64,000 nt of DNA, taken from positions 124,001-188,000 of the forward strand of contig NGBS01000871.1 of NCBI GenBank assembly GCA_002245135.1. Direction: 5' to 3'. The position numbers were made by a program, and so were the translations under genes. The notes under the pieces are model-generated. The model was given only the letters and a program-made list of their open reading frames with translations. It was not told where the DNA came from and made no database searches. This DNA is from Proteromonas lacertae. Lineage: Eukaryota. This document shows, in pieces, positions 4,884-62,621 of the stretch. Every line of letters begins with the position of its first letter. Positions within the stretch are counted from its first letter, which is position 1.

Positions 4884-4967
4884 TAATACAGTGGGAAATA
4901 ATTCTATTATACTATGATACTTTTTTTGTTATTATATTGCTGTTTTTACTTTTATTAAGCCATAATG

Positions 4968-5141
4968 AGATATTTTGAATATGATGATGAAGAAAAAGAA
5001 TTAAATTTGATTGATGATTTTAAAAGTCATGAGAGTGATATTAACTGTGTTAGATGGAATCCTGTAAAGACTAATATGTTGTGTAGTTGTAGCGATGATG
5101 AAAAAGTGAAAATATGGAAGGTTAGTGAAATTTTAGATTAA
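4968..5141 (+). pseudogene. Duplicated 3' fragment of CIAO1
   Basis: Encodes RYFEYDDEEKELNLIDDFKSHESDINCVRWNP...VSEILD*, matching the end of CIAO1 at 43267-43440. No 5' part present. Confidence 0.9.
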
Positions 5142-25781: not shown

Positions 25782-28700
25782 ATGAAATTCATACTACCTG
25801 TTCTAGCTATACTGAGTATAATTTATTTGCATTATTAAATTTCTACATAGGTATCGTAATAGCTGATAGTTGCACTATAAAGAAGGATTTAATCGAGTTA
25901 TCTACTCAAAGTTCTTCTAATATATCGATAGTAAATTGCGTGAACGAAATATCTTCTTGTATAATTAATCCCAGATTACCAAGTGCCTTAAAACTATCTT
26001 CGAATTGTGTAATAAGTGGCCAATCGAGTAAAACAGTAGAGAGACGAGAATTTGAAGTAAAATATGTCATACGATGGTATTGTATATAAAGAAAAAGTAG
26101 AATATAGTGATATATGGAATATTGAATAGTTGTAGTTATGGAGTTAGTTCCGATGGAATAATAATATCTGGAAGTAATGCCTTTACAATCTCTGCCCCTC
26201 GATGTAATTCTCCAATCAAAAGTTGTAGTTGTGGATGATTTACCATCTGGAGTAAAAATATCAGAAAATGGAACAATCTACACTGAAGGAGAGACAAGTG
26301 AATCTTCTAAAAGTAGTTATACAATCGTTTGTAGTGATGGATACTAAGTCCTGATTACTATTTCTTTACAATTAAGGAATAAAATCGAGTAGTGAATCAA
26401 AACCCCTTCAATATTTCCAATATCCAACAAATGATTTTGGCATTTTATGAAAATAGAGAAGCTTCAATAGCACCAACATATTTAGGTAATATAAAAAAAG
26501 GAGGTTGTAGTTATACATCAGGAAATAGCTTTTATGATGGAGTTACACTTGATCATGATACTTGTGTAATAAGTGGTAGAATTGGTGAAATTCCTAAACC
26601 AGCTGAATATACACAGCATTTTATTACAATAACTGTAATATCAGCTGATGATCTTAGTAAATGTACATATACAATGAATATTCGATATATTAGTGATAGT
26701 CATGGAAATTATCAACATGGTTGGTTAATCAAATTTTATCGATTTAAAACTGCTGATTGTGTTACTAAATATGTAGATCAAACAGGCAAAAAAGAATTAA
26801 TATATGTAGGAGTAAGAGATTATATAAATTACACTAAAGGTAGTAGTTTATGGCCCGAATATGGCTGGCATTTAGAAGAATATTCTTCATTAAGTTCAAT
26901 TGGATTTTATCATGAAAATAGTCCCAAAACATATTTTGGTTATAGTGGTGTAGTAGATGTATATCTAGGTATTAATAATCATTGGCCAGTTCCTGGTCTG
27001 CCAGATTATACCACCAATGCTGATTGTAGCCCACCATCCAAAACATTATATGGAACTCTATATGGTAAAGGTATAGTAGAAATGCATATGCATAGAGGAA
27101 ATGGAACAGATGATGAATTTAAATATCTAATAGAAGATTATACTAGTGATAAACTAGGTGAATTTATTGGTCCATCTACTGTATCTCATCAATATTTAGG
27201 ATTATTTGAATATTCTTTAATGAAAGCAATATATCCAGCTCATACTAAAATTCCAATTAATAAACCAATTTTACAAGCTTGGTTTAGAGTAGAACGTCCA
27301 ATTGACAGTTTTGAAATTGATCGAGAATTACCAATTGGATTAGAATTTGATCCTAGAACAGGATGTATAAGTGGATATAGTGATGAACTAACAGAATCTC
27401 AATATTATACAATAACATTAAGAGGAAGAGATAATTATAATAATGAAAATAAAAATGTTCCATTTGTATTTACATGTGAAATTGAGATAGAAATAGAAGA
27501 ATATATAAGTTCCGAAAATGAAATAGAATGTGATTCAACTAAAGTAGTTAGTGTAACAAATAAAGAAATAAGTCCAATTATTTGTAGAAGAAAAAGTGGA
27601 GGTAAAATATTATTTCATTCAACTGATTTACCATTAGGTATAAATATAAATGAAGATGGAATAATCAGTGGAACTCCATCAGAAGTAATATCTAATCATA
27701 TATCAACAATTTATGGATATACAATAAATGGAGTTAGTTCAATTGATATTCAATTTGAAATAAATGACTGTATAATTCCATCTGATTTAATGGAACTATC
27801 AATAAATCAAGCTTCGAATATATCAATAATCCGCTGTAAAAATGATATATCTTCTTGTATAATAACACCCAGATTACCAAATGGTTTAAAACTATCTTCG
27901 AATTGTATGATAAGTGGAGAATCAAGTCGAACTTTAGATCGAAAAGAATTTGAGCTAAAATATGTTTATAATGGAATTGTGAATAAAGAAAAAGTGAATA
28001 TAGTGATATATGGAATATTGAATAGTTGTAATTATGGAGTGAATAATGATGGAATAATAATATCTGGAAGTAATGCCTTTACAATCTCTGCTCCTCGATG
28101 TAATTCTCCAATCAAAAGTTGTAGTTGTGATGATTTACCATCTGGAGTAAAAATATCAGAAAATGGAACAATCTATACTGAAGGAGCAACAAGTGAATCT
28201 TCTAAAAGAAGTTATACAATCGTTTGTAGTGATGGAAGTCGAAGTGTGAATATTCCATTACAATTAAGTATAGATACAACCAAAAGTGGATCAAAACCCC
28301 TTCAATATTTCCAATATCCAACAAATGATTTTGGATTTTATGTTGGAAGACAAGCATCAATAAAACCAATTAGTTATTTAGGTGAAATAAAAAGTTGTTC
28401 ATCAAATCCATCATCATATGCAAGTGGTATTACATTTAATGATAATACTTGTGAGTTTAGTGGGAGTTTTAGTGGAAGTCATACTTATCAAAATGTTTCA
28501 GTAACTGCTGTATCTGCTAATGATCTTAGTTCATCTACATATACAATATATATTCGATATATTAGTGATAGTCATGGAAATTATCAACATGGTTGGTTAA
28601 TCAAATTTTATCGATTTAAAACTGCTAATTGTGTTACTAAATATGTAGATCAAACAGGCAAAAAAGAATTAATATATGTAGGAGTAAGAGATTATATAAA

Positions 28701-31700
28701 TTACACTAAAGGTAGTAGTTTATGGCCCGAATATGGCTGGCATTTAGAAGAATATTCTTCATTAAGTTCAATTGGATTTTATCATGGTCAACAAAGAACA
28801 TTTGTTGCTTATAGTGGTGCAGTAATTGTATATTTCGATTATCCAGGAAAATGGGAGGTTCCTGATTATAATGGTTATATTGGTAAGGATGATTGTAGTA
28901 TACCAAGTCATACTTTAGTTGGTACAGGATTTAATAATAGAGTAGAATTCCATCAATATAGAGGAAATGGAACAGATGATCAATTTAAATATTTAATGTG
29001 TATACCAGTTGGACAAGGATCTGCAGAAACAAATAATTATGTTGGTCCATCTACTGTATCTCATCAATATTTAGGATTATTTGAATATTCTTTAATGAAA
29101 GCAATATATCCAGCTCATACTAAAATTCCAATTAATAAACCAGTTTTACAAGCATGGATTACTGATAGTACTATTAATGGTTATGAAATCGATCGAGAAT
29201 TACCAATTGGATTAGAATTTGATCCTAGAACAGGATGTATAAGTGGATATAGTGATGAACTAACAGAATCTCAATATTATACAATAACAATAAAAGGAAA
29301 CAAAAAAAATTATGGTTCATATACAATGACATGTGAAATCGAGATAGGAATAGAAGAATATATAAGTTCCGAAAATGAAATAGAATGTGATTCAACTAAA
29401 GTAGTTAGTGTAACAAATAAAGAAATAAGTCCAATTATTTGTAGAAGAAAAAGTGGAGGTAAAATATTATTTCATTCAACTGATTTACCATTAGGTATAA
29501 ATATAAATGAAGATGGAATAATCAGTGGAACTCCATCAGAAGTAATATCTAATCATATATCAACAATTTATGGATATACAATAAATGGAGTTAGTTCAAT
29601 TGATATTCAATTTGAAATAAATGACTGTATAATTCCATCTGATTTAATGGAACTATCAATAAATCAAGCTTCGAATATATCAATAATCCGCTGTAAAAAT
29701 GATATATCTTCTTGTATAATAACACCCAGATTACCAAATGGTTTAAAACTATCTTCGAATTGTATGATAAGTGGAGAATCAAGTCGAACTTTAGATCGAA
29801 AAGAATTTGAGCTAAAATATGTTTATAATGGAATTGTGAATAAAGAAAAAGTGAATATAGTGATATATGGAATATTGAATAGTTGTAGTTATGGAGTGAA
29901 TGATGATGGAATAATAATATCTGGAAGTAATGCCTTTACAATCTCTGCTCCTCGATGTAATTCTCCAATCAAAAGTTGTCAGTTGTGATGATTTACCATC
30001 TGGAGTAAAAATATCAGAAAATGGAACAATCTATACTGAAGGAGCAACAATTGAATCATCTGAAAACATGAATTATACAATCGTTTGTAGTGATGGAAGT
30101 CGAAGTGTGAATATTCCATTAAAATTAAGTATAGATACAACCAAAAGTGGATCAAAACCCCTTCAATATTTCCAATATCCAACAAATGATTTTGGATTTT
30201 ATGTTGGAAGACAAGCATCAATAAAACCAATTAGTTATTTAGGTGAAATAAAAAGTTGTTCAGCAAATCCATCATCATATGCAAGTGGTATTACATTTAA
30301 TGATAATGACTTGTGAGTTTAGTGGGAGTTTAGTGAAGTCATACTGTATCAGATACTAATTACCAGTGACTGCTGTATCTGCTAATGATCTTAGTAAATG
30401 TACATATACAATGAATATTCGATATATTAGTGATAGTCATGGAAATTATCAACATGGTTGGTTAATCAAATTTTATCGATTTAAAACTGCTGATTGTGTT
30501 ACTAAATATGTAGATCAAACAGGCAAAAAAGAATTAATATATGTAGGAGTAAGAGATTATATAAATTACACTAAAGGTAGTAGTTTATGGCCCGAATATG
30601 GCTGGCATTTAGAAGAATATTCTTCATTAAGTTCAATTGGATTTTATCATGATAGTAGACCCAAAACATATTTTGGTTATAGTGGTTCAACAATTGTATA
30701 TTTTGGTAGTAATACATGGGCCAGCTCCAGGTTATAAACTTACCGAACGGAGCTGAATATGTTGGTAAAAAAGATTGTAGTATTCCAGATAATACATTAT
30801 ATGGAATTCTAAATGATAAAGGTCCAGTAGAAATGCATATGCATAGAGGAAATGGAACAGATGGTCAATTTCAATATTTTATTGATCGAACACCAGGAAC
30901 AACTCCAGCAAATGATTTTATTGATCCTACTATAGTAGCTCATCAATATTTAGGATTTTTTGAATATTCATTAATGAAAGCAATATATCCAGCTCATACT
31001 AAAATTCCTATTAATAAACCAGTTTTACAAGCATGGATTACTGCTAGTACTATTAATGGTTTTGAAATTGATCGAGAATTACCAATTGGATTAGAATTTG
31101 ATCCTAGAACAGGATGTATAAGTGGATATAGTGATGAACTAACAGAATCTCAATATTATATAATAACAATAAAGGGAAAATAAAAGGTGGTCCATATACA
31201 ATGACATGTGAAATCGAGATAGGAATAGAAGAATATATAAGTTCTGAAAATGAAATAGAATGTGATTCTAAAATATTAAGTGGAAGAATGGATAATGAAA
31301 TAAGTCCAGTGAAATGTGTAAATAAAAATGTAGGTAAAATATTATTTCATTCAACTGATTTACCATTAGGTATAAATATAAATGAAGATGGAATAATCAG
31401 TGGAACTCCATCAGAAGTAATATCTAATCACATATCAAGAATTTATGGATATACAATAAATGGAGTTAGTTCAATTCAGCTTAGATTTGATATTGATATT
31501 GCATGTCATTATAATTCATTTTACTTTAATTATACTATTGTTACTGCAGGAACATCATATACATTTATTCAAAACGATGAAATAATATATTCAACAAATA
31601 ACACAGATTCAGTAGAAGAAGAAAAAATGCTAGTAGTTTGTGCAACTTATGAAACAGATATAAGAATAATAATTAATAGTAATTCAATAATAGGAGGAAG

Positions 31701-34700
31701 ATTTGTATTTCGTCGAAATAAAGATTTAGTATTAGTATCAGGACAAGTAGAAGATTTAATCGATCAAAGAGAAATAATAATAAAGTTTCCAAAAGAAGAT
31801 GAAAAACCAATTCTTAATTACCCTGATATGACAAATTTGATAGTTGGATTTAAATATTATATTGGTCCAATAGTGATAAATGGAGGTTATACATTTGAAA
31901 TTGAAAATCCAAGTGATGATATAAAATTTGATAATAAAACAGGTGCTTTTTATGGAGAAATAACTAATGAATTTAATAGAACGTATATGGTAAAAGCAAC
32001 AAATTATAATGGAGAAAGTATTTTAACTCCAGTAACAATAATATCTTCAAGATGTAAAAATGAAAAACAATTATTCAAATTAAATGTAAATATTGGTGAA
32101 GCTGATAATGGAATTGCTTCTATTGAAATTAAAAGAAAGACTGATAGTACAACAGTATTTGCAGCTCATCAAATGATTGCAACAACATTTGAAAAATCAT
32201 TTTGTGAATTACAAGGAGATTATATTGCATTATATTCATTCACATCTGCTTCTACTATAACAATAGAATTAGAAGATGTAGATGTAACAACACTACTACT
32301 TCCAGGAATAGACTATGGTCAAGATTTCTTTGTTTATCGAGTATATACTGGCGAAAGTAATTGGTATTATACTTCAACATATCATGAAGATTGGATTAAT
32401 ATCACTAATTTTGATAATTCATGGAAAAATAAACCAATGGGTGAATTTGATGATGTGAATAGTATAGTGAGATATTATAAACATAACTTTACAGTTCCAA
32501 ATACTGATTTAAGCACAGCAATATTATTGAATCTTACTTATGCTGGAGGTATAGCAGTTTATATAAATAATTATTTTGTATATATTAATAATTTACCTGA
32601 TGAATATGGAAATAATACTCCATGTAGTTCAACTGCTGTTCAAACAATCCAAATTCCAATAGTTACTTCTTATTTCAAAAGAGATGGAAGTGATAATTAT
32701 ATTTCAATCGAATGTCATTTCCCAAATCAAGATATAAGACCAGATAATTTGAAAGTTAATATTCAATATATGGGAATAAATCAATGTTTGAATGCTCCTG
32801 CAGTTACTGAAGACAATATTGCTGATGTAAATATTACTGCATTTGTTGCACAAACTCAAGCTGTATCAGACAGTACACTTAAAGAATCTGTTTTTACTGG
32901 TGTTTATAGAACTGCAATATATAGTGATCATGAAGGTAAAGGTGGAGCATTCAATTATGATTATGGATCTTATAATGCTTATGAAAATGCTTGGTTTAAA
33001 TACATTTACAAATATCCGATAATGATTTCTAGATATTTATTTAGTGCAAATGGTTTACCATTAATTAATTATGCTGTAAGTTGGGATGTGTTAGGATCAA
33101 ATGATGATAAAACGTGGGATATATTACACTCTGTAAGAAGAACTGCTGAGTTACAGAATGAAGAAGATAGACCATATTATATTCCAAATTTAAAAGGACA
33201 ATATAAATATTATATGTTTAATATAACAGCAAGAGGTGATAATAAGGAAAGATTATCAAATGTATTTAGAACTGCAGGTATGTTACCATCAATGTGTAAT
33301 TATCCACAAACATGTGGTGATATTCCAATGGGAAGTGAAAGTTATTTCATGTGTCCTGAAGGTCAAGAATCTGATGAAAAAACGGCTACATCTGAACCAA
33401 TCAGGATAGTGGAACAATGTAAAAATTTGAAGGGTATTCCAACACTTCATGATGATGATTTACATACTCGTAATGGTTGTTCAAGAAAACATATAATATT
33501 CGATGCATCTAATAATCTAGTAACTGGTTATGTTGGAAGAGAAGTCCCAACATATAGATCATATTTATATGTTGATAGAACTACAAATACAACAATTACT
33601 TCTACTCCAGAATTACCTGAAGGAGTGAAAATAGATCAATTGAGTGGAAGAATATATGGTGTTGCTAATGAAGTTAGAAAAGAAACATCATATAAAATAA
33701 CTGTAACTAATAATAATTATCCTGATGAACAAAAAATAAAAGAAAGAACAATTAAATTAGCAATATTAACTCAATATTGTTTAGAAAAAGATATTTGGCC
33801 TAAAACTGAATTTAACCAAATAGCTTCATTAGAATGTGATGAAGGATGTCATGGAAATAAAACAAGAAGATGTGAAATAGTGAATGGCAATCCCGAATGG
33901 GGCGATGTTAATTATGAAGGATGTTCTTATCCACAATCAGTAATATATCCAAATACAACTACTCATTATTTAGATATCGGAATAATAAAACCTAAAGTTA
34001 TTTCAATGGAAGATAAGAATTTAACATTTGAAATAGTATCTGAAAATGAAATATCTCGATTATTAAAGATAAATGAAAGTAGTGGAGAAATAAGTGGAAA
34101 TATAACATTAAATATAACATCAAATGATTATGAAATATTGGTTAATGTAACAGGAAATCATACAATCACTACTTCATTTATACTAACGGTGGGTATAATA
34201 GTTCCAAATATTAGTTATAATAGAGAGATATATAAAGGAGCAAAAGGATTATATTTTGAAAGTGAAGTTGGAAATATTAATGCTTATCAACCAAAATTAT
34301 CAATATCTCCTGATCCATCATCTGTACATTCTGGATTATCATTTAATTCAAGTGATGGAAGAATATATGGAACTGTAAATACACTATTAAATGAATCATT
34401 AACAGTAACAGTAGAAAGTGGAGATTTACCTTCATCTTCATGTGAAATAAGAATATTGATAGAAGAATTTGAGTATATATTTGATGAGATTCATAAAACT
34501 GACAAAATCTCAATTTCTCCAAAAGGCGTTGCAGAAAATTCAAAATTCGAATTTAAAGATGAAGAAATAAAGAAAATATTAGAAAATATAAACATCTATT
34601 TAAATGAAAATAATGGAAAATTATATACTCGAGAAAATGAAGTTATAAAAGATATATTAAATGAAACTTCAATAACAATAATACAAACATTAAAAGGAGT

Positions 34701-37700
34701 ATCAATTGAAACAACATTCAATTTAACAATAACAAAATATACCTTCAATTATACAGATGTGAAAGATGCTTATCATAAATATGAATCACTAGAATTAATA
34801 CCAACAATAAAACATGAAAATGTAAAAGTATTTGAATTAATAGATAATATAAGCGAAACTTTAAAGAAACTAGGAATAGAATTAAATTCAAATACAGGTG
34901 TTATATCAAGTAATAGAATATTAGATATAGTAGAAAATCATACATTAATAATAAATGTAATTCAAAAACTGAAAGATGATAGAGAATTTGAAGCAGAAGT
35001 GATTCTTAATTTATATTATCCAAAACCACCAGAATTTATATATGATATGGATGAAATGTATTATTATAAAGAAAAAATCAATATATCTCCAAGTAACAAA
35101 AGTGAAAATTCAATATTCATAATTGATCCTCCAGAGATTGAAACTAAAATGAATGATATAGGAATAATATTCAATAAAACAAGTGGGTTAATTAGAAGCG
35201 ATAATATAACTGGATTTATGAATGAAACATTTATGATAATACAAAGTAATGAATATAAACCAGACAATACCAATTTTACAATGACTTTATTGGTTGTTTA
35301 TCCTGCTCCAACAAAATTGAAATATGGAAATGATAGTTATAGATTAATAGTGAGTGATATATTTGAAATCATACCAACAGAATGGGATAATAATGTAGAT
35401 GCAAAGTTTTATTATGAATCTGAAATAGATTTGGATGAATATAACATAACATTAAATAATGAAAATGGTATAATAAGTGGAACTCCCACTCTGAACCTGT
35501 CAGAGACTGAAATAATTATAATATTGAAGAATACAGCTGGAAATATTTCATTTACATTTTCTTTAACAATTGTTTATCCTCCATTAGATAGAATAACTTA
35601 TGATAAAAAAATGGAAGGAGAAGTAGCTGAATATTATGAATATAAACCCAATTATGCTCATCCAGATCCAACAATCAATTTTAATCTAAATGAAAGTGAT
35701 TTGAATGATATAATAAGTAGAAATTTGACATTTAATGAATCAAATGGTATAATTAGTGGAATTCCTTTGAATAGTTTATTTAAAGAAATAGTAATAAAAA
35801 TAACAAGTGATAATGAAAGAGAAGGAATTGAAAGAACAATTTATATATCAATCTATAAACTAGTAATTCCAACAATATATTATGAAAATTCAACAATGAA
35901 AGTTCATTTCAATTATTCATTCAGTTATAAACCAACTTCTTATGTAGGAAAATATGATAGTTTCTATGTGAATGAATCTGATGAGAAAATATTAGAAGAA
36001 TATAATATGATACTGAATAATAGAACAGGTGAAATCTCAGGTAAACCAATGAAATTAACTGATAAAAATGAAAATACAAATATAACAATTTATATAAAGA
36101 ATAAATTAGGAATAAATTCAACTGTTTTAAGAATCTTAGTAGTTTATGCACCACCAACAGTATTAGAATATCCTGTTAATTACTTGAAATTGTATATTGA
36201 TAAAGAGTTTGAATTAAAACCAAACAGAGTAGTAGGAGAACCAGATATAAAATTCAAAATAGAACCATCCCAAAATGAAACATATAATATCACAATTGAT
36301 GAGAATGATGGAAGAATGTATGGAACACCTATAGAAGTAACATATGATCCGATAGAAATATCATTAATAGTGTATAATGAAGAAGGTTATGTGAGTTTTA
36401 AATTGAATTTTACAATAGTCTATCCAGTTCCACTTGAATTTTCAAGTGATGAAGTATCTTTTGTATTTAATACAATTACTGAATTTGAAACAGAAGAAAT
36501 TAGAACAAAATATTCAGGAAGAGATATGAATATAAAATATGAATGTGATTTTGGAGTGAATGAATATAATTTAACATTTAATGAAACAAATGGAGTGATA
36601 AGTGGATTGATAGAAGATGTGAATACTTATAATTTCACAATATATGCTTCAAATTTGGAAGGAAGATCAAATGAATCAATTATAATAACAATTAGAATTA
36701 GACCAACTAAATGTAGTATATTAACATATTTACCATCAATTTATACATTTTATGAGTATGAAAGTAAAGTGAATATATCAAGTCCAACATCTGATACACT
36801 AATTGAATCATATGAAGTATTAGAAAAATCAAAATTTGAATCATATGGATTGAAATTGAATAAAACAAGTGGAGAAATCTATGGAATAAGTGGAAAAAGA
36901 ACAGAAGGAGAAAATTTCACAATTTATGGAATAAACGAAGATGGAAATTGTTCAACTGAAATAACCATAATCATAATAATTCATCCACCACCATTTTATG
37001 GATATGAGATTAATAATACAGTAATATTTGAAAGAACCAGAGAAAAACTTCCTTCAAAACCAATTATTAAAAATGATTATCCAACAGTGGAAGTAGATGG
37101 ATATGAATTGAATATAACTGATGAAGTGTTAGAAGAATATAATATAACATTCAATAATATAAGTGGTATATTTAGTGGAAAGAGTGAAAAGAATGGAATA
37201 ATATATGTAGAAGTAACAGCTTATAATTATATAGGAGAAACAAAACAGAATATAACTATCACAATAATTGATCCAATTCCTAATTTAATAAGATATAGTG
37301 AAGATTTGATAGATCGAAAGTTTTATGTAGGAAAAAATTATTCAATTGAACCATTAGAATATGATAGATCAATATTATATTTTGATATATCACCATTAGA
37401 TAAATTGGAAGAATATGGATTGATGTTTGATAATATGAGTGGAAGAATAAGTGGAAATATCTCATCTCCATTTGAATTAACAACATTCACAATATATGGG
37501 CATAATAATAATCCTCAGAATATTGCATTAGATTATAAATTAGAATTAATAGGCAAACATCCACCACCAATATATATAGAATATAATCCAAATTATCTAT
37601 CAGTAAATGTAAATGACACATTTAACTTTAACAAACCAACAGTAATTGGTAATTATACATCATTTGCAATGAATGAATTAGTTGAATTTGATAATGGAAC

Positions 37701-40700
37701 AATATTGTTCAATAATAAAACAGGTGAATTAAGTGGGTATTATTCATCTTACCATGAAATTTCAGTTGTATTAACAATATATGCATTGAATGATGAAGGA
37801 AATACTTCAACCAATGTTAGTATTCAAATATTATCACCTCCACCTACTTCTATTGTTTATAACCAGAGTGTTTATTATTGTATTCAATTATTATACTGTT
37901 ATATTCCTGAACCAACTGTAGGATATCAAGATCGAGTAGATGGTTATTTAGTGAATAAAACATTATCGGAATATGGATTAGATTTTAATGAAGATGATGG
38001 TTCAATGAATGGATTAATAAATAAGAAGTTTTTAGGTGATTTATATTTGAATATTACAGCTTATAATTTGAGAGGATCTTTATCAGCATTTATATTGATT
38101 AAAATAATAAGAAATAAACATGAAACTGTAACTCCAGCTCCAGTTCCAAGTATTGATCCTCCATCTCCACCACCATCTGATCCACTTGAAGAAGTGAATG
38201 ATATATTACAGATTGAAATAGAATTAAGAAGTAAAAATGAAAATCCAATGATATTACAAAGATTAATTTGTACTTCAAACACAACTGATTATTATTTACA
38301 ATTAATAAAAACAGATGAAAAATTACCTCCAATAAATTCAAACGAAGAAAACATACTTATAAATTATCCAATCAAAGAATATATAGGAATTCATTTACAG
38401 TTATTAGAGAAAGAAGGATTTCCATATTTATTGAATAAAATATTAGGAAATATGAAAAGGAAAACCAATTTGATATTAGCATCAACAAAAAGAGCAGAAA
38501 CACCATTAAGAATATTGCAATATGCCAAAGATTCCAAAGTATTTAGACTAGACATATCATTATATAAACAATCAAAACAGAGTGAAGAAAACAATAGAAA
38601 TAATAGATATTTGACAGAACTAGTAGAAGATGATGATTATAATTATAATTATATAAATAGGAATAGGAAAAGAAGTAGAAGAAGTGTATTAGAGAATAAT
38701 AATAATAATAAACATTATAGAGTTATAGAATTATATAGAATAAATAAATGTGGAATATTTGGTGACTTAATAAATGTGACAATGAGAAATATATATATTA
38801 GAATTTATGATACATTAGAAATCAGATGTAGTGGAACTTATGGTATATTAGCCAATACAGTAGTTAATTCAACATTAAAGAATATAAAAATCGAATTTTT
38901 CAATTCCAATACAAGGCATATTTATATATATAGTAATTCGGGTGATAAATTTGGATTATTATGTGGAAGTGCAATAAATTCAACATTTGAAGATGTTAGA
39001 ATAATAGGTGATTCATTAACAATAAGAACCAAATCAAATAATACAAATGAAAATGAGAATGGGAATGAAAATGATAATATAATACTTTCTTCAATGATAG
39101 GAGAATGTGATAATTGTTCAATCGAATATTCCTTTGTAGATTTATTATCATTGAGAATAATAAATGAAAATGGAAATGAGAATAATAAAGTGATATTTGG
39201 TGGAATATTTGGATTAGTAAAAAACGGAAATGTTTCAATGAATATAACATTCGCATTAATAAGAAAATCGTTATTAATAACAGCTCCAGAAATTAATGTT
39301 AATGGAATGAAAGTAATATATGGTGGTTTAGTTGGTTTAATAATGAGAAATACAAAAGTGAATATATATTCAAGTTGGTATAAGATGGTTTCAAATGGAA
39401 TCTATAGTAAAATATCAGATATGAGATTTGGCGGATTTGTTGGTTATTATGAAGATATTGATAATAGTTATATAAAGTTGAATGTTGAATATTCATATGT
39501 AAGATATATAGTGAAATATAGATATTTAAGTAATATTTATATTGGATTATTCTTTGGATTTGAAGATTCTGATAATAATAATAATAATATAGAATTAATA
39601 AATCAGAATAATTATGGATATTCATCTTATCCATTTATTTGTGATTCTAAATCATTCTATCTATTACCATTTGCCATAGAACCATCTAAACGATTACTTC
39701 AAGGCATAGATCCAGGTGAACCAAATCAATGGCCTTCATTCTGTGTTGATAATAATACATATTATGGTGATGGTATATATCATTCATGTTGTTATGATAT
39801 GGAATGTGATGAAAAATTGAAGTTATATAATTTCCAATATAGTAAAATATCTGGATTTTATACGAATTATGCTCCAGCTGAAACATCGGAAGGAATTCAT
39901 GATAAATCAACCTTATTTTTGAAAAGAAGAATGTTTTTATCTCCTTTTACAAGATTATCAAAAAGAAGAATAGTGACAGATAATTATAAGCATTCAAATG
40001 CATATTTAGGAATGGTGACAAGTTCAAATTGTCCATCGAATTGTAATAAGAATGGAAAATGTCTAAATGGCAAATGTGCATGTTATCCTGGTTATGGAAG
40101 TGCTGATTGTAGTTTAAGAACATGTCCATATGGAAAAGTGAATGGATTGAATGTTTATATGGAATGTTCCAATCAAGGAAAATGTAACACAGATAGTGGA
40201 ATGTGTGAATGTTTTGATGGATTTGAAGGAAGAGATTGTTCTAGAATGAGTTGTCCAAATCAATGTAGTAATCATGGAGTATGTCATGAAGTGAAAGATG
40301 TAGAATTAGTAGATGGAAAAATTATACCTCAGTTTACTCGAAGTTATAAAAAAATAGATGGAAAATTAGTTCAAGTTTGTATATGTGATGATGAATATGA
40401 AGGATATGATTGTAGTTTAAGGAAATGTCCAAGAGGATATTATGAAAGAAGTGATGATTGTGAATCATTCTCTCAAGATAAACAAACAATAATATTTAAC
40501 ATTACTTCAAATACCCCAAATTATGGTGAAGGTGATAAAATATTTTTGAGATATACAGATCCATTTGGAATGAAATGGTACACAAATGAAATAAGATACA
40601 ATGAAGTAGATGATTGGAAGAAAGAATTATATACATTGCCAAGTGGAATAATTAGTTTAGAAGATATAAGAATATCAAATGATGATTTAGAAGAAACTAA

Positions 40701-40977
40701 AATCGAAATAATCTATTCAAAGCATCAAACAGGAAGACAAATTCCAATAGAAATAATTGGAAGAAAAGAAATAAAAAATCATTTAGAAATATATAATTAT
40801 AAAAAAGTGAATGAATTATTAAATACAAAGAATGTGAAAGTAGAATCAATAATGGATGATATATTACCAGCTACAACTTGTAGTGATAATGGAATATGTA
40901 ATAGTAAGAGTGGATTATGTGAATGTTTTGAAGGATATGAAGGAAATGCTTGTGAAAGAAGAATGAATGACTTTTAA
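25782..40977 (+). CDS. Giant (~5,000 aa) secreted protein: Ig (He_PIG-like) and PA14-like repeats, F5/8C-like domain, Ig stalk, GLUG-like region, C-terminal mastigoneme module
   Basis: Signal peptide MKFILPVLAILSIVIA (intron 25816-25850); recurring LPxGLxxxxxGxISG motifs. ORFs 26392, 29930, 30366, 30716 and 31201 join through single-base indels, with the repeat copies showing the correct frame. Confidence 0.8.
25866..31476 (+). repeat. About three tandem intragenic units of ~1.86 kb (~619 aa)
   Basis: Identical antisense ORFs 27734..27925 and 29591..29782 give a period of 1857 nt. The block ISDSHGNYQHGWLIKFYRF...SSIGFYH occurs three times. Confidence 0.92.
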
Positions 40978-41059: not shown

Positions 41060-43110
41060 CTAAAAAATTAATGAAATTATTGTTATAACAAGAATTAAAT
41101 TGATTGAACAAAAAAATCCATTATTATCTCCTCCATCTTTTGTAGTATCTGGAATTGTGGTTTGAGATGTTGAATCTGGTGCTGTTTCTGTTGATTCATT
41201 AAGCGTTGTAGCAGCGCTTGTTGTTGTTGTTGTTGTTATATCATCATCATTATCTTTCATAAAATCAGTCAATCTTTTTATCATTAAATCTACTTTGTTA
41301 TTTGTATCACTCATTATTCCATTTAAATCACTATCATATGAATTAAATTCACTGTCATATTTATAAAAATCACTTACAGTTCTTTGAATCAAATATTTAT
41401 CATTTAAATTTGGTATTATAAAGAAATATAATTCACCAAGCTGAGTTTTTTCACTCATAACTATTCTTTCTCTAATAGACATTCCAACTTTTATATAATC
41501 TTTTATTTCTTTATCACTTTCACTTAAATCCATTTCTACACTTTTTAATACTCATATAATAATGATCTTCAATAATATGAAAATCATTTACATATGTTTC
41601 TTCATGACTTATGTATTTACCAATTGGTATTGCATTTGTTTCTAATCCAATCAAACTCAATAATTCTGTATTTCTTTGAATTGTTGATTGTTTCATATAC
41701 TTTGTATTACTTAATATTATCATATTCACATTATCTCCTGCTTTTGAAAATTCAATTATCACTTCTTTCAATTTAGGATCAGCAGTTGGACATAATTGTT
41801 TTACTGTTTCTCTATTAGAATACAATTAAATAAATATATACACTTTATATTCAGTTTTTCCATCACAACTTTTAACTGTTTCTTTAAGAGTGATTTTCAT
41901 TTCACTATTTGTATCAGAGATTGCTATAGTAGGTGATTGAGCTGTTAAATCAATTTTCTTTTGAAGAATTATCTTTTCTAATACTTTTGCATCATTTGAT
42001 TTTGTTTTTTCAATGTATATAAAATCTTCACCACAAATGAAATATCCTTTATAATAATCACTTGTCACATCTTCATAAAACCAACTATCTACAGTATTAG
42101 CCTTTATTTCTTTAAGTTGTTTATTCTCATTAAGATTTCTCATTCTCATTTTCTGTTTATAAGAATCTTTGATTTCTTTTTGAATGTTTGTTAATTGAGT
42201 TGTTATTTCTGTTGAAATATCATCTTCACTTATTGATTCTCCAATTGGTAATATAAATACACTTTCACTTATTTCATATATTCCTTTATAATGAACAATA
42301 TTGGAATTTGCTGATAATGAATATATCTTTGTTATTATTTCTGATTCATCACTCAATCTCTTTATTCTTATCTCACTATAATCTGTTTTATCAACCCAAC
42401 TAACAACTTTATCAGTTTCTACATTACCAGACAAAGATAAATGAGTTGAATCTGATTCATATAAAAAGTAAATTATCTTATTATTCTTGATAAATATTCC
42501 TTTCATATCACATATTTTGAAGAAATGAGATTTTACAGAATATGTTGTTGGATTTACTTTAACAATATTAATAAGGGTATTAGCTGCTTCTAATGATATT
42601 GAATTTATTTTACCAGCACTAATTACTGATATGTAATAATTACTATAATATTCAACATTTATAGTTTTACTGAATTTAGTGATTTTTGTGTTTATTTCAG
42701 TATACAGACTTTCACACATTGTTTGTAATTTGCTCAACTTGTATTCTTTATTTTCTGTTATACTGCATTCTTTACCACTTGATTATGCATTTTCAATTTC
42801 TTCGTTAGAAAACATAAAAAATGATTTTTCATCATTTATCTTATTATTTACAGCATAATCTATTGAAGTTTCATCTTCAGTAGCTTTTGTAAGTGAAAAT
42901 ACAAACTTCTTAACTTCTGTTGATGAAACACCTTCAATATATGCCAATTCTGTGTTAGTCATTACTGCAGTAGGAAAAGTGTGAGTGTTTACTTTTAATC
43001 CTTCAAAAGCTGGAACTTTAGCATTTATAAAAGTAACACTTACTACAACCAAAACTATTAATAAGAATATTGTGTATTATACTGAAAACAGTTTTATTTA
43101 TAATGAACAT
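41060..43110 (-). CDS. Predicted GPI-anchored surface protein, copy 2
   Basis: Same gene as 5298-7452 but with the short tail GGDNNGFFCSINLILVITIISLIF*. In-frame TAA at 42783 (AAC in copy 1) and +1 near 41555. Confidence 0.72.
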
Positions 43111-43440
43111 CTTGAAAAACAACAAAATTCGATTATTTTCTTTAAAATTCTTTTTACTTCTTTCAGTTGAAAATATCGTTTCATAAAAAGGTTATAATAT
43201 TCATTTACTCATAAATTATTAACCCTTTAAAAGAACAAATAGAATAAATAATGAATAGTTTTCTTATTAATCTAAAATTTCACTAACCTTCCATATTTTC
43301 ACTTTTTCATCATCGCTACAACTACACAACATATTAGTCTTTACAGGATTCCATCTAACACAGTTAATATCACTCTCATGACTGTTAAAATCATCAATCA
43401 AATTTAATTCTTTTTCTTCATCATCATATTCAAAATATCT
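41132..43440 (-). repeat. Right arm of the inverted duplication (partner 4968-7278)
   Basis: Direct comparison puts the endpoints at 43440<->4968 and 41132<->7278. Confidence 0.95.
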
Positions 43441-44284
43441 AATAATATTATCTCTACAACCTGTTACTAATATATTCAAATCTTTATTATAGTTAATAGA
43501 ATACACAGTCATTGAATGTAAACCATTTAATAATTTCACATTTTCCCACCTATTTTTACTATTTAATTCCCATATTCCAATCACTCCATCACCATCACAT
43601 GAGTACATGAGATTATCATCATTAAAATCTATTTCCCAAACTGTAGTTTTATGACCAACGATTATTTGATTACAAATCCAATTATCATCGTATTCATTCC
43701 ACATTCTAATAGAATTATCATAGCTACAACTATATAGCACATTATTATGCCATTTTATAAACTTTATATCTTGTGTATGACCATCTAATATTGTTATACA
43801 ATCATATTCATTATCACTACTTCTTCCATATATAAATATTCGTTTATCTCTACCACAACTGGCAATATATTCTTCTGATTTGTTCCATGAGATTGATTTA
43901 ACTTCATTTTCATGACCATCTAATGTAGCTATTGTTTCCCACTCAAAATTAATTTTGGACCATACTAATACCTTGTTATCAAAACTACATGATGCTAAAA
44001 AACTATTCAAACAATATTAAGAAATGAAATACTTCCCAGAAGGTGACCATTCAACACATCTTATTGTTTTGGTATGTGCATCATCTATAATATCTTGCAA
44101 CAGCCACTCTTTATCGATCAAACGATATATTCTGACAGTCTTGTCTTCACCACAAGTTGCAAGTTGATTACCACTTGGATTCCATGATACATGCCTATTT
44201 CATAAAATATATGATGAATTATATGATAAAATACCACACAATTCCCTTATTATCTTCTAAACAAGCAATTTCATCAATTTTCAT
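43267..44284 (-). CDS. CIAO1: Cytosolic Fe-S assembly WD40 protein Cia1
   Basis: ATLDGHENEVKSISW, ILDGHTQDIKFIKWH, SCSYDNSIRMW and HESDINCVRWNP; two short introns. Confidence 0.9.
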
Positions 44285-47680: not shown

Positions 47681-47872
47681 TCAAATGCAAATTTTCTTAA
47701 TGACGAATTTGGTTACCGGAAAAGAGTATTTTCGCTCACACCCATTTCAAATTTTTTTATATAAAATCTGTTCCGTTAGATATCATTGCTAATTAGCAAT
47801 TATAAATACTCAGTTATATAGATACAATCCGTTAAATAGGTATTAAACCAGATCTTCATTGAACTACAAAAA

Positions 47873-50315
47873 ATGAGTTATACAAGCAGCAACATTGCTC
47901 AACTATCTCCCATTGAATACACTGTGGAGAATAACCAGGTAAGCGAAAGCACTGATCAAAATATGGATTACTACAATCAAGTTTTGTCTAATGAACCATT
48001 AGTTTCAAACGATAGTACACCAATAAAGAGAAAATGTACAGAAAGTGAAAAACTAAATCAATTTGTCATAAAAGAGAATGATATTTACAGATGCAATGTC
48101 AAAGGCTGTATATTATTCAATCCACAGAAATCATGGCATCGTTTAAAAACTCATTTATACGAATATCATGCTGATAAGTTAGTAGAAGCAGGTATAAACA
48201 TAGAAGATAAAGAACGAAAAGCAGATGATGTTAAACCAAGTCTTCGAAGAGGTCCACCATCTAAAAGATCACGATTACCGATGGATTATTTCAGAAATTT
48301 CTGTAAAAAGGATGAAGAAAGTGGAAAATATTCGTGCACTGTGCCAAACTGTAAAGATTTCCATCCACAAAAGTCAATTACTCGTTTAAAACGACACTTG
48401 GTTCAATGTCATGAAAGATATTTGATAGAGAATGGAATAAAAGAAGAAGCGATGAGGGAAATGAAAGAAAGTTTAAGAAATTCATTGGCAAAAGATGAAG
48501 ATGATGATAATAATAATAATACAACAGCAACTACTACAAATGGTAGATATAAAAAAGGGAAATATGCTGGTGTTGGTGCACCTTTAACAAAAATGTTATT
48601 AGCTTGTGATATGCCATTTAGATTGATTGATAATAATTATTTTATTGAATTTCTAAGAACTTCTACTAACAATAGTGATATATATTCAAGAACAATGAAA
48701 GAAAGAATTTTAGATTTTCATCTTTTAGATTGCTATAATATGATCAAATTGAAGCACAGTAAAATAATTGAAGCATCACAAGAAAATGGATTTATTTCAG
48801 TAAATATATTTGAATTGCCCTATGATCGAAAAGTCATTGTTTTGTTCTTTCATTCTAATTCATGTGGGAAGATTATGTTATGCTGTAAAAGTCAAATATG
48901 TGTGAGTTTAGAACCAAAGAAACTAGAAGATATAAGTATTTTTATTTGATATTATATTTATTTAATTTATTAAAATAGTTAAATATACAATAGAAGAGTG
49001 GAGTATGTCAGCTTCTAATCTTAAAGACAAAATCTGTGGCTATAGAATCAATAATATTAAATATTATAATACTCTATTAGAGAGTAGTAAAAACTTAGGA
49101 TTTAGATATTTGTTAGATGAAGAATTGATAGATAATAATATCAACAATAGTAATGTAAAAATATTACTTTCATCTCCATTTGTATTTAATGATTATGCAG
49201 GAATCTTAAAGAGAATTTTTACTTTATCAATTGGAGAAGGATCTTCTGCAATGTTTATGATTAATAATATAGTTAGAGATAAGACAAAATATGCTGAATT
49301 ATTACACAAGATTAATAAATACAGAACATTATTTAGACAAATGATCACTTCATTCAATTTATTGTATGATACTGTTGGATATTTAAAAGACCAAAAAGAA
49401 TGTAAGAAATTCCCAGAAATAAGTGTTTATAACCAATTAGATTTATGGTATGAAAGAATAGAAATATTATTGCGCTATAAAGAAGAAAGAAAAACAAGAA
49501 TTCAAATATTTAAGCAGTTATATGAAGGAAATGAATGTATGAATTATGAGATTGAAAAGTTCATAAATTCATTGGAATTATATGATGAAAACTTTTATGA
49601 GTTTTATAAACATATTTTGGATGTATTTAAGCCTTATCAAGAAATGATAATAAAGATGAATACAGATGTAAAATACGATTTATCTCATTTCTATGTTGAT
49701 TTGATTACATGTAGAAATAACAACTCCAATAAAAGGATCATGAATATGAATGATAGTTTTTATCTATTATTTGATGATATTTATTGTTATTATGAGTCTT
49801 ATTTTCAATATGATTATTTGACTTTAGCTTATTTACTTGATCCAACTATTATTGACCCAATTCAACAAATTGAAAGTAATAATTTAAAGATAAATGACAA
49901 TCCAATTGATTTAGTGGCAGATAGTATTAACATAAAGAAAATGATTAGTGATGAAAGAAATTTTAAAGGATTTCTAACTGAATTTGTTCGTAATAAAAAG
50001 GAGATTGTAATGGCGAATGGACATAGTGTTGAAGATAAAGCGTTGTGGTTTAAAAATGAGAGTAATGAATTATGTAAATTAGGAAATGTTCTTTTTTCAT
50101 ATAATATGAGTGAAGATTATAGAGAAAAGAATATATCGTTTGATTTTATAAATGATGATGAAAGATTTAAACAGAGTGAGTTTATAAATAAATATATGAT
50201 GTGTAAAGAGAATATTGAATTGATTGATATACTAGATGGAAAGCAATTGAATAACACTTATGATAAGATACCAGTACCTATACCTATACTAAATACAAGT
50301 AGTTATTCCGTATAA
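47873..50315 (+). CDS. hAT-transposase-derived (ZBED-like) protein with two BED-type zinc fingers
   Basis: CNVKGC...RLKTHLYEYH; CTVPNC...RLKRHLVQCH; DMPFRLIDNNYF; IEEWS; LAYLLDP; degenerate dimerisation segment ELCKLGNVLFS...REKNIS. Intron 48936-48978. Confidence 0.7.
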
Positions 50316-58522: not shown

Positions 58523-60861
58523 ATGAGTGTTTTAAAATACTTATGTGTGTTTATATTATCAATTGAGCTTGTTTTTGCTAACTGTCCTTATGAGTGCAAG
58601 TATCTTTTCATTTTGATAATATTTGTAGGAATAATGGTATTTGTAAAGCTAGTACATGTGAATGTCTATCACCTTGGAGTGGACCTGATTGTTCTGTGAG
58701 TATTTTTTTTTACTAAATCTATCTGTACAATAGAATTATGTCCATTTGGTAGTGATTGGAATGGTAATCATACAAATTATGTTGAATGTTCAGGTAGAGG
58801 AAGATGTAATAGAGAAACTGGTGAATGTATCTGTGAAAAGAACTTCATTGGTCAATCATGTGATAAATTATCATGTCCATCAGTAACCTATCAAGACTGT
58901 AGTGGTCATGGTAAATGTCTATCAATGAAACAAAATGCAGAATTATATGTCCAAAATACCAAGTGTTTCGATGAAGATCCAAGTAAAGACCCAATAATAA
59001 TACCTTATTATGAAGATCCTATTAGTAGTTGGGATGCTAATCGAATACATGGTTGTAGATGTCAATCTGGTTGGAAAGGCTATGATTGTAGTATTCCTGA
59101 ATGTCCTTATGGTGCTGTGACTTATAAAAATCATGCACATTCGACTAGTTATTTCACAATTCCGAGAGAAAAAGATAATACTTTCTTAGCAACAACAAGA
59201 TCGTGGAAAATCACAATAAAAAATTGTCCTTATCGTACAGCCACTTTTTGTCCAATAGAAACATTCGACGTTTCTCCATTTATTAATTTAAAGAAATTGC
59301 AAGATATTATAAGTGCAAATGGAATAGTTAAAGATGTTATTATCAACAGTATCAATGAATTACCGATATTTAATACTCCAGGAAATGTTATTAGATTTAT
59401 ATTCGTTTCAGATCCAAATGCAGAAGTTATTCAAGTATCTGATAATGATAAGAATAAAATAAATTCAAAGTGTTTTGTTTCAAATATAAATAATAATAAT
59501 TATAAAAGTAAAAATCAAAAATTTCCACTATTATATACCATATTATCTCCAGCTGAAAAAGTATATTTAGAATGTAGTGGAATTGGTGAATGTATTGCAG
59601 GAAAATGTGTAAATTGTGACAATACTGAATCAACTACAAATCCTTACTTATTGAATGAAGATATAGAATACAACAGTAATAGCAATAGAATTAACAATTG
59701 TCAAGTATCATCAAATCAATATATCAAATTACATAAAAGTGATGAAAAGGATCTATGCATATGGGGTGAATATTTAATATATAATAATGATTCAGTTTCT
59801 GAACATAATTACTGTAAATGCAATCCTGATTATTATGGTAAAAGCTGTAATAAAGGAAAATGTAGTAAGTTTAAAGATCGATCATTTTTCGATAATCCAG
59901 TTGCAACTAATGAAGCACATATGCCGAATTCATGTAGTAATGAAGGTAATTGTAATGAATTAACTAATAATTGTATTTGTAGAAATGGATTTAGTGGTTT
60001 AACTTGCAATTTGATGAATTGTCCAATAGGAAGTAAGAATAAACAAACATGTTCGAATCATGGCTATTGTAGAACAATGTCTGAGTTATATAACATTACA
60101 GAAAACTCAAATTTCTTTTATTGGGATTTTACTTCAATCGGTAATTGTGATTGTGATGAAGGATATACTGGTTATAATTGTGAAGAAAGAAAATGTCCAA
60201 TTGGTCCAGATCCTTTAGAATGTGAAGATAATCAACATTCATTTTTCCCTCCTTATTTTGAAATACCTCCATTAAATTCATGGAATACATTGACATTTCA
60301 TTTTAATGGTTTAGATACACCTGCTATTACTAAAGAGACTTTATTATCTGATATATCAAAATATTTGAATGATATAGGAGTAAGAGGTCCATTTACTTAT
60401 AATCGAGTTGAAAGATATGAAGATAAAATCACATTAACAATAGCAGAAACATATAATGATAATATTCAAGTATCTAATTTGAAGGATAATAAAGAGAATT
60501 ATCAATATAATATCATCTATTTACATTCTGTATATTATTATTATTATTATATATTGATTAGTATTGTAATGAAGAATTGATACAGACGCAGTTAGTTCCA
60601 CATAAGAGTATATCTTTATTAACACTTACTAATGAACGTAATAATAACATTATTCTACATAAAGGAACTGTTAATTGTTATGAATGTTCAAAAAGAGGAA
60701 TTTGTGATAAAGAATCTGGAATATGTAAATGTATTAAACCATTTAGTAGTAGTAATGGTATTAACTTGAAAGGTATAACAGAAAGTGGTAATAGAGGTGA
60801 CTGTGGGTATTTTAACCCAATTGAGAACTTGGAGAAGCAAGATGTAAATGATGATTTGTAA
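58523..60861 (+). CDS. Secreted EGF-rich protein with two tandem mastigoneme-like modules
   Basis: Signal peptide; ECSGRGRCNRETGEC; WDANRIHGCRC...GYDCSIPECPYG; FFDNPVATNEAH; CPIGPDP; terminal ECSKRGICD...SSSNG...GNRGDCGY. Confidence 0.75.
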
Positions 60862-60981
60862 TTTAATAAATATAATAATTATTACTTATTATTATTTTTG
60901 AATTGTGTTTATATGTTGAAATAAAAGAAGAAATAGGATCAACAGAGTTTGTATAGACACTTTCAAATGTAAAACTCAGTT

Positions 60982-61053
60982 GGCTCTGTGGTGTAATGGT
61001 TAGCACATTGGACTTTGAATCCAATAATCCGAGTTCAAATCTCGGCAGGGCCT
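60982..61053 (+). tRNA. tRNA-Gln(UUG)
   Basis: Acceptor stem GGCTCTG/CAGGGCC; anticodon arm TTGGA-CTTTGAA-TCCAA with TTG at 61015-61017; T arm GTTCAAATC; downstream T-run terminator. Confidence 0.97.
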
Positions 61054-61298: not shown

Positions 61299-61555
61299 AT
61301 GAGAAAGATAAAGAAATTATAATGAAGTTTCTCAAAAATCTAAAAGAATCGTGGTGTAAGGCAAGGTTATTCATTTTCATCTTATATTTTCTATCTGTGT
61401 ATGAATGATCTAATAGACAGCATAGCTAAATATACGAAATGTGTTAGTTCAAATAAGAAATTTTTAATGATATTATTTTAGAATCACAGCAAATATCTAT
61501 AACATATTTATTGAAACTATTTAGTCCATCGACAGATTTGTGCAATAATATATAT

Positions 61556-62173
61556 TGTTGTGCGCCGTTGAGCTAAATGCGCCGTTGAGCGTTAAGAAGA
61601 CTTTTTTCAATTCTAAAATAATAGTGTGTGGTTTGATGGCGAGTTATATGCAAATATAATCTTACTTTGTCATATAAGCTACATCTGTGGTATATATTTT
61701 TTTAAACTTAATCCCAACATATTGAAAACAATTATAATTTTAATTTTAATTTTTTTGCTTCAATCACTACTAGAGCTAAAAATACATTAGTTTAAGCAAT
61801 TAAATCACACATATTTAGATGTTAAGACACTTAAAAACGAAAAAATAAAAAATCTATTCAAGCCTCATTCAAGCCTGTTTTTTCAAAATAAATTTTACTC
61901 AGGTAAATGCAATAAGTAGATATTCCTTTTCTATTTAAAACCTTTATCCCGATGTCTACTATTGTTATAAGCTTTTAAAATAATATAAAAATAAAAAGTG
62001 TTTCCAGTACAGGAACCTAAGCATGACTATACGATATTAGGCCAACGTAACTATTTTGGAAAACAAAGTATTGATTAGTAATATTGAAGGGCCAGAGGTT
62101 ACGTTTATGATATTAGAATTGAAAAAAGTCTTCTTAACGCTCAACGGCGCATTTAGCTCAACGGCGCACAACA
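61556..62173. mobile_element. Non-autonomous TIR element (MITE-like), 618 bp, TGT...ACA ends
   Basis: Perfect 61-bp TIRs at 61556-61616 and 62113-62173, each containing TGCGCCGTTGAGC twice; TATAT on both flanks; no ORF inside. Confidence 0.88.
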
Positions 62174-62621
62174 TATATATATATATATATTCATAATTAT
62201 TTTACATAAATTATTTATAAACATTATGTTACATAAATTATTTTAAAAAAAGACTTAAAAGGCAGGCTTGAGTGATGCTTGAATCTTTTTTTTTCTTTTT
62301 TTTTAATATTATAACATCAAAATCAGTTTATTCTATTTATATTAGATAATGTATTCTAGACTATAGTAGTAACTGAAACATAAACTTAGAAAATATTAAA
62401 AATTTATCGCAGATGTTATGTTATAGGACAAACTCACTATATATATATTTGTAAATACCTCCTTATAACTAAGGAAAAATTATATTTTTAAATTCCTTTC
62501 GTTTGAAATAAACATTTTCTATATTTTAAAAATAATAATTCGTTTCATATAATATGAAACGTATATATTTTAAACAGTTATTTTTTTCTTTTTTAATTTT
62601 CTCATAATATAATCAATAATA

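Follow-up and report, generated by a model that had tools for sequence, protein, structure and literature searches.

In the stretch of DNA analysed here (64,000 nucleotides of Proteromonas lacertae, positions 124,001 to 188,000 of the forward strand of contig NGBS01000871.1 in assembly GCA_002245135.1; the whole stretch is called the window, and positions are counted from its first letter), a giant gene ends in a module of the proteins that form tubular mastigonemes, the tubular hairs of stramenopiles. The last 316 residues of its product (40027-40974, with a TAA stop at 40975-40977), in which the peptide motifs quoted by the initial annotation of the window are found, close a stop-free plus-strand frame of 3,279 codons (P0001, 31138-40977) and are, by homology, a complete mastigoneme module of the short OCM type. 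The module is joined to a predicted beta-helix and, in front of that, to a long stalk of immunoglobulin (Ig)-like repeats, and the junction of beta-helix and module recurs in independent proteins.

The terminal module

Pfam recognises only epidermal growth factor (EGF) families in the module (EGF_TEN and EGF_2). When its sequence was searched against those of the PDB, the top six of 14 matches were the chains, six in number, of the Ochromonas tubular-mastigoneme entry 9UFE, at E 4e-26 to 2e-18; the single-sequence alignment to OCM6 crosses the non-EGF middle (query 44-220). A family profile was then built from nine sequences, the window module and eight close relatives, and its positions 9-332 of 334 were aligned with the 366-aa chain 9UFE_BA at E 9e-49, end to end and with the middle domain included, which bears out the identity first proposed by the initial annotation. 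All six OCM chains score above teneurin with this profile, and the teneurins match it at positions 7-95 only (E 8e-13). The likeness to teneurin and tenascin, which share the EGF_TEN and EGF_2 matches, is confined to this part; since only the first EGFs align and Pfam finds no other teneurin or tenascin domain, generic EGFs of that kind were ruled out, and an outcome of generic EGF or tenascin hits alone did not occur, the match passing through the inter-EGF region.

The module carries four EGFs and 25 cysteines and keeps 29 of the 33 conserved Cys/Gly columns. Its structural model has a mean predicted local distance difference test score (pLDDT) of 82; fold searches with it returned integrin and Notch EGFs and weak matches for the middle domain (Z of at most 7.2), 9UFE, which possibly lies outside the libraries, not being listed. 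Neither a transmembrane nor a glycosylphosphatidylinositol (GPI) tail follows, as the initial annotation had stated: the best 19-residue hydropathy window is 1.54 in P0001 as a whole and 0.27 near the C-terminus, and the module is therefore the only evident anchor of the protein.

Three N-terminal EGFs, a homologous middle, a terminal EGF and the lack of a transmembrane segment are common to the module and the Sig1/Ocm/PnMas proteins (OCM1-6, 9UFE), the closest OCM chains being the 366-368-aa BA and EA/OCM5. Known mastigoneme (Mas) proteins are described with a signal peptide, 3-4 EGFs and no transmembrane segment (PMC12223298). They are reported to be missing from a non-flagellated pennate diatom. 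As a rule Mas proteins stand alone and measure a few hundred residues, whereas the window module ends a chain of 3,279 (likely about 5,050) residues, is without the GxD[PL] motif usual in the family and has one additional cysteine. Of the 174 fetched proteins in which a module was scored (two window entries removed), 144 have 60 residues or fewer in front of it, compared with at least 2,963 in the giant protein; an N-terminal extension is also seen in OCM3, a solved subunit whose module starts at residue 158. By homology, then, the module belongs to the mastigoneme family, and the protein as a whole is no ordinary member of it.

Conservation of the fusion

In a search of longer proteins, P0073, P0074 and P0075 from Logan ranked at the top, and their clusters gave four further long members. 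Over the last ~800 residues of the giant protein, seven Logan proteins from three clusters give collinear alignments (29-37% identity, E 1e-95 to 1e-118); the part in front of the module aligns in the Logan relatives even when taken alone (E 1e-27 to 2e-55), and in the three clusters, which are independent, the protein sequence of the linker stays conserved as far as the first EGF. An assembly misjoin was rejected on this ground and is very unlikely because beta-helix, linker and module are collinear in all seven proteins; the misjoin that might have undone the initial annotation did not come to light, and the fusion is, on this conservation, real and conserved. A stop made by polyadenylation in front of the module, as in Blastocystis, was also considered and rejected, there being no plus-strand TGTTTGTT in the gene; a lone TGTTGTT at 39787 is two Cys codons inside the conserved linker.

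The beta-helix region was matched in seven of 205 fetched proteins, all seven of which end in the module, and phmmer found a single match to it among 1.84 billion representatives (P0074, E 5e-48). A scan of JGI metagenomes that covered 80 of 182 confirmed loci gave no match (0/80) to the beta-helix or the Ig stalk, and a search for other giant fusions with the last 740 residues as query returned six matches in proteins of 1,803-5,739 aa, all to EGFs only and with 9-19% query coverage, so that no second giant protein with the full-length architecture came up. The fusion of beta-helix and module is, to judge from these searches, a rare family. Its members, which sit on Logan contigs of 4-7 kb, differ in what they carry in front: P0075 and P0197 have He_PIG and an HRM-like domain before the beta-helix, whereas P0073 and P0195 are complete proteins of 1,089-1,091 aa with a signal-like start and a Thr/Pro-rich, mucin-like front, the intact signal peptide of P0073 sharing an open reading frame (ORF) with its module. 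By these alignments the conserved unit is beta-helix, linker and module, with interchangeable fronts of which the Ig stalk is one of several. In the literature searched, which left most subscription journals outside, no description was found of a mastigoneme fusion or of an He_PIG/HRM-like protein ending in beta-helix and module, and the architecture looks undescribed so far.

The regions in front of the module

In the open frame, Ig repeats are followed by two candidate sugar-binding domains, a pair of He_PIG and HRM-like domains and the 15-repeat stalk (Table 1); a proline-rich stretch, the ~380-aa beta-helix and the ~130-aa linker then lead to the module. The initial annotation was correct in placing module and Ig stalk in one uninterrupted ORF, as the frame of 3,279 codons covers both, but the module is not fused directly to the stalk, these three regions intervening.

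Table 1. Features of the giant gene and of the stand-alone mastigoneme-family gene (window positions).
Feature	Positions	Strand	Basis
Likely start: signal-peptide-like first exon	25782-25815	+	Read from sequence; hydropathy like other secreted starts
35-nt GT-AG intron after the first exon	25816-25850	+	Read from sequence
Tandem array of about three ~1.9-kb units containing He_PIG Ig domains	25851-31186	+	ORF list, Pfam, unit comparison
Possible galactose-binding-like jelly-roll domain	32341-32775	+	Nothing matched in Pfam, in NCBIfam or among PDB sequences
Possible carbohydrate-binding domain of F5/8 type (CBM32-like)	32905-33303	+	Weak PDB match
HRM-like four-cysteine domain after a He_PIG repeat	33778-33933	+	Pfam HRM match that misses the cut-off (E 0.019)
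Stalk: Ig-like (He_PIG) repeats of ~94 aa, 15 in tandem	33940-38130	+	Pfam, purpose-built hidden Markov model (HMM)
Predicted right-handed beta-helix, GLUG / IgA1-protease type	38500-39642	+	AlphaFold2 model, fold search; conserved in all long relatives
Basic motif RKRSRR, insert after first beta-helix rung, possible cut site	38665-38682	+	Motif comparison
Conserved linker from beta-helix to module, with KR/RxL motifs	39643-40026	+	Alignment; low model confidence
Mastigoneme module, three N-terminal EGF-like domains	40027-40416	+	Pfam, PDB-sequence and profile matches, model
Mastigoneme module, middle alpha/beta domain, without usual GxD[PL], one additional cysteine	40417-40872	+	PDB-sequence and profile matches, model
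Terminal EGF-like domain with the stop; neither transmembrane nor GPI-like tail	40873-40977	+	Pfam, hydropathy
Stand-alone mastigoneme-family gene, signal-peptide-like start, two tandem modules	58523-60861	+	Sequence, Pfam; 9UFE matches E 2e-22 to 4e-9

The 15 repeats of the stalk, delimited with an HMM built for the repeat, occupy aa 935-2331 and match Pfam He_PIG at E 6e-22, and 63 N-glycosylation sequons lie within aa 900-2340. PF05345 scores 78.4 bits in P0001 and 117.6 bits in P0002, with a gathering cut-off of 24. The pair of He_PIG and HRM-like domains recurs in P0075 (pairwise E 3e-8). Tandem He_PIG repeats and an HRM-like domain are features that the giant protein has in common with the He_PIG (PF05345) and HRM-like surface proteins of Opalinata, from which it differs in ending in beta-helix and module without a membrane anchor. 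In Table S5 of PMC12129017, the HRM superfamily is counted 42 times in Proteromonas, 0 times in Cafeteria and 12-107 times in Blastocystis, and the cadherin-like superfamily 57 times in Proteromonas and 31-123 times in Blastocystis. The initial annotation had also described the protein as a lectin, a label for which the candidate domains give no match to F5/8, CBM32 or PA14 families in Pfam, no meaningful one in NCBIfam, and a single weak match in the PDB, that of the second domain to the GH92 mannosidase 7NSN (E 0.013, in two stretches). We take the first of the two to resemble a galactose-binding jelly-roll, and the F5/8 label of the second is likewise our assumption.

The beta-helix was seen when the last 807 residues were modelled with AlphaFold2; the model's mean pLDDT of 60.7 comprises values mostly of 70-90 in the helix core and below 50 in the linker. 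The fold search (VIA) returned 6XJA (Z 22.1, root-mean-square deviation (rmsd) 3.9, 280 residues aligned) and 3N6Z (Z 17.0, rmsd 5.0, 268 aligned), with Z of at most 14 for other beta-helices; sequence searches of the region against the PDB, Pfam and NCBIfam gave nothing significant. The fold is thus like that of the streptococcal IgA1 proteases (M26; 6XJA) and of Bacteroides BACOVA_03286 (3N6Z), at 12-15% identity, and is presumably of the type called GLUG. The M26 proteases differ in having the zinc-binding motif HExxH, which is absent from all 3,279 aa of P0001, and an IgA1-type protease identity was rejected for this reason.

The reading frame and the 5' end

The frame of 3,279 codons, which takes up where the repeat array ends and closes with the stop behind the module, stands out from the longest frame (115 aa) seen in 200 shuffles of the DNA of 31138-40977. 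No signal peptide was seen at its start, nor was an in-frame one found just before the module. From the likely start at 25782, with the 35-nt intron removed, the span to the stop is about 5,050 codons. The protein of ~5,000 aa given by the initial annotation is thus not an uninterrupted ORF: to read the span through takes 12 or more frame changes, every one of them 5' of 31186, and the length holds if these are assembly errors. The array itself, of ~1.9-kb units that are mutually 83-88% identical, holds a second open frame of 1,201 aa (26383-29988), and clusters of 1-2-base indels lie at about 26067-26385 and 29980-31186, next to stretches 99% identical to intact copies. In the 9.8 kb downstream of the array there are no frame breaks. 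Clustered 1-2-base indels beside near-identical copies are the pattern expected of an unpolished long-read consensus, and because the breaks all fall within the array and none in the following 9.8 kb, we consider them to be probably consensus errors.

Position in the mastigoneme family

Trees were computed with FastTree from 239 of 246 extracted modules and with IQ-TREE from 62 of those 239. The window module falls into a clade of 14 with 13 Logan sequences from five clusters (FastTree support 0.997; IQ-TREE Shimodaira-Hasegawa approximate likelihood-ratio test (SH-aLRT) 97), six of the 13 being short and likely partial, so that their fronts are not visible. A EukProt protein labelled INCI, which we read as Incisomonas, adjoins the clade at 87 in the IQ-TREE analysis.

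A separate group is formed by P0014, P0150 and P0152, in which up to ~800 unrelated residues precede the module and end directly before it in a CGxTxHF[ST] stretch, presumably a self-cleavage motif like that of GPS/ZU5; their amino-acid make-up suggests GC-rich hosts. On these trees and fronts, long extensions have been added to the mastigoneme module at least twice. Inserts between the modules are also present in the two-module Mas proteins P0156, P0182 and P0169 (low-density lipoprotein (LDL)-receptor class B repeats; an HMA-like match), another sign that the module accepts cargo.

The second mastigoneme gene and the surroundings

The stand-alone gene at 58523-60861, a candidate for a somatoneme subunit and partner of the giant protein, contains introns of 29 and 34 nt and a third near 60500-60570 without defined borders. 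Its modules are as diverged as that of the giant protein, with 17 of 36 conserved columns kept in each and long branches in the tree. Behind it lies an 81-bp inverted repeat (61545-61623 / 62106-62186, 95% identical) that flanks ~480 non-coding bases, with a tRNA-like sequence close by at about 60980-61050; this region is possibly a small non-autonomous element. Elsewhere, a 2.3-kb inverted duplication (4962-7278 versus 41132-43446, 98.5% identical) holds a gene without Pfam match in each copy, one copy starting 155 bp past the stop of the giant gene, and two plus-strand frames with Cys/His motifs at 47840-50315, without a Pfam match at E 0.001, resemble a BED-finger or hAT-type transposase relic. 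No flagellar genes were recognised among the 71 window ORFs scanned. The window has a guanine and cytosine (GC) content of 27.15%, which fits Proteromonas lacertae, for which Table 1 of PMC12129017 lists 27.0%, against 21.5-23.1% for the Blastocystis of tortoises and 39-55% for others; five further marker domains occur in Proteromonas as well as in Blastocystis and do not tell the two apart.

Possible docking on hairs and alternative explanations

Proteromonas bears tubular, tripartite body hairs, the somatonemes, which are formed in cisternae of the endoplasmic reticulum (ER) (PMC11603286). Our preferred reading, held tentatively, is that the giant, likely secreted protein docks through its module as a minor subunit on tubular hairs, from which the Ig stalk would project as an adhesin. 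If the breaks at the 5' end are consensus errors, the protein would enter the ER by the signal at 25782, and there, since this is where somatonemes are made, the module would join a polymer of ordinary Mas subunits, for example the product of 58523-60861. The beta-helix would serve as a stiff spacer, the basic/RxL sites of its loops perhaps being nicked without release of the front, and the stalk, which at ~4 nm per Ig repeat would measure about 60 nm for 15 repeats, would present the putative sugar-binding domains to mucus or bacteria. The presence of a stand-alone Mas gene in the same window speaks for this docking, as does the second lineage (P0014, P0150, P0152) that gained a long front independently, the N-terminal extension of the solved subunit OCM3 and the count of 246 EGF_2 proteins in Proteromonas against 2-4 in Blastocystis (PMC12129017). 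A complex prediction with three copies of the module was uninformative, scoring 0.02 where the mark is 0.32, and was not used as evidence.

Several observations weigh against docking on hairs. The signal-like start is separated from the open frame by the 12 or more frame breaks, and the front might be released at the basic/RxL motifs that lie between the stalk and the module. The module itself has diverged: of the 36 conserved columns other than Cys/Gly it retains 23 (64%; the median of 223 other modules is 81% and the lower quartile 69%), and GxD[PL], a motif after the third EGF that was derived here from fetched homologues and is not a published criterion, is found in 0 of the 14 members of its clade versus 125 of 156 other pattern matches, all 14 carrying a cysteine at this site. 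Should the Logan relatives stem from hairless Blastocystis, the module would also have to work without hairs. The divergence of the module can be read as a sign of an exapted anchor, in which the diverged module acts outside hairs and, through self-association, its spare cysteine or a membrane partner, holds or cross-links the protein in a coat on the cell surface. We think this somewhat unlikely, although the motif is lost clade-wide, the first conserved Trp/His is mostly lost as well, the clade is long and separate in both trees, and the cysteine count is odd (25) in the window module and in P0073. Blastocystis is described as having neither flagella nor surface hairs, and all eight of its proteomes retain 2-4 EGF_2 (IPR013111) proteins in Table S5 of the same source, which lists 24 for Cafeteria and 246 for Proteromonas (PMC12129017), the latter possibly a large expansion of mastigoneme-like genes. 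On the other hand, the whole module is retained, middle domain included, and the equal divergence of the stand-alone gene means that the divergence may be lineage-wide. There is, too, no named Blastocystis protein among the matches listed (69 of 69, the best 120 of 157, and 6 of 6), the word-based nature of the searches making this weak evidence of absence.

A polyprotein is another reading, which we regard as improbable: the precursor would be cut at its basic or RxL sites into parts that separate, the Ig stalk being set free as a secreted glycoprotein and the module, with or without the beta-helix, serving as a hair subunit of the ordinary kind. RXL is known as a protease motif in secreted diatom proteins (PMC5501833). 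In the giant protein, RKRSRR lies at aa 2510-2515, with basic or RxL-like motifs at the equivalent place in P0073, P0074 and P0075, the linker contains KRLLQ and KRR, and the presumed self-cleavage motif precedes the module in the independent fusion family. Yet in all four aligned sequences the basic site that is conserved best comes just after the first aligned rung of the beta-helix, where a cut likely would not free the halves, and the sites of the linker do not coincide in all four; the position after the first rung would favour nicking over release, but the modelled stretch there is of low confidence. It is quite improbable, moreover, that this copy is truncated or decaying, with real 5' frameshifts and no secreted giant protein while the family is alive elsewhere. 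Decay would fit the 12 or more frame changes and an open frame that starts without a signal peptide, but not the confinement of every break to the array, as clustered small indels next to near-identical intact copies. Least credible, to the point of being nearly negligible, is an artefact, whether a misjoin or a separate small Mas gene that begins at a Met (40012) and is in frame by chance; such a Met does precede the module, and the inverted duplication begins shortly after the stop, but the in-frame Mets near the module lack a hydrophobic signal, the motif TGTTTGTT is absent from the plus strand of the gene, and conservation of the linker extends to the very start of the first EGF.

Implications for tubular hairs

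Tubular hairs define the stramenopiles. Their functions other than thrust have been termed enigmatic (PMC11412368), and both the role of the body hairs of Proteromonas and the matter of whether they share an origin with flagellar mastigonemes are stated to be open (PMC11603286). To this question the window supplies two mastigoneme-family genes and a conserved fusion, and the fusion predicts an adhesive role for hairs. With its long stalk of Ig repeats, an anchor at one extremity and putative binding domains at the opposite one, the protein recalls the fibrillar and pilus-displayed adhesins of bacteria, with the limits that the anchor is here a eukaryotic hair subunit and display on a fibre is presumed. 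In Ochromonas the hairs receive their lateral filaments, which come in two sizes, in the Golgi (PMC2108286); these are a possible counterpart of the displayed front.

With still more reserve than for the docking itself, one may conceive of hairs as a modular display scaffold: gut opalinatans would use the unit of beta-helix and module to decorate somatonemes, or fibres derived from hairs, with interchangeable cargo such as the Ig/lectin stalk of 5,000 residues or a mucin-like front, as a eukaryotic counterpart of pilus adhesins, a second lineage would have arrived at this independently, and the fusions would perhaps be the lateral or terminal filaments of tripartite hairs. If the relatives prove to belong to hairless Blastocystis, a hair subunit would have been retained and repurposed after the loss of hairs; if docking on hairs is true, it would be a new way of displaying adhesins.

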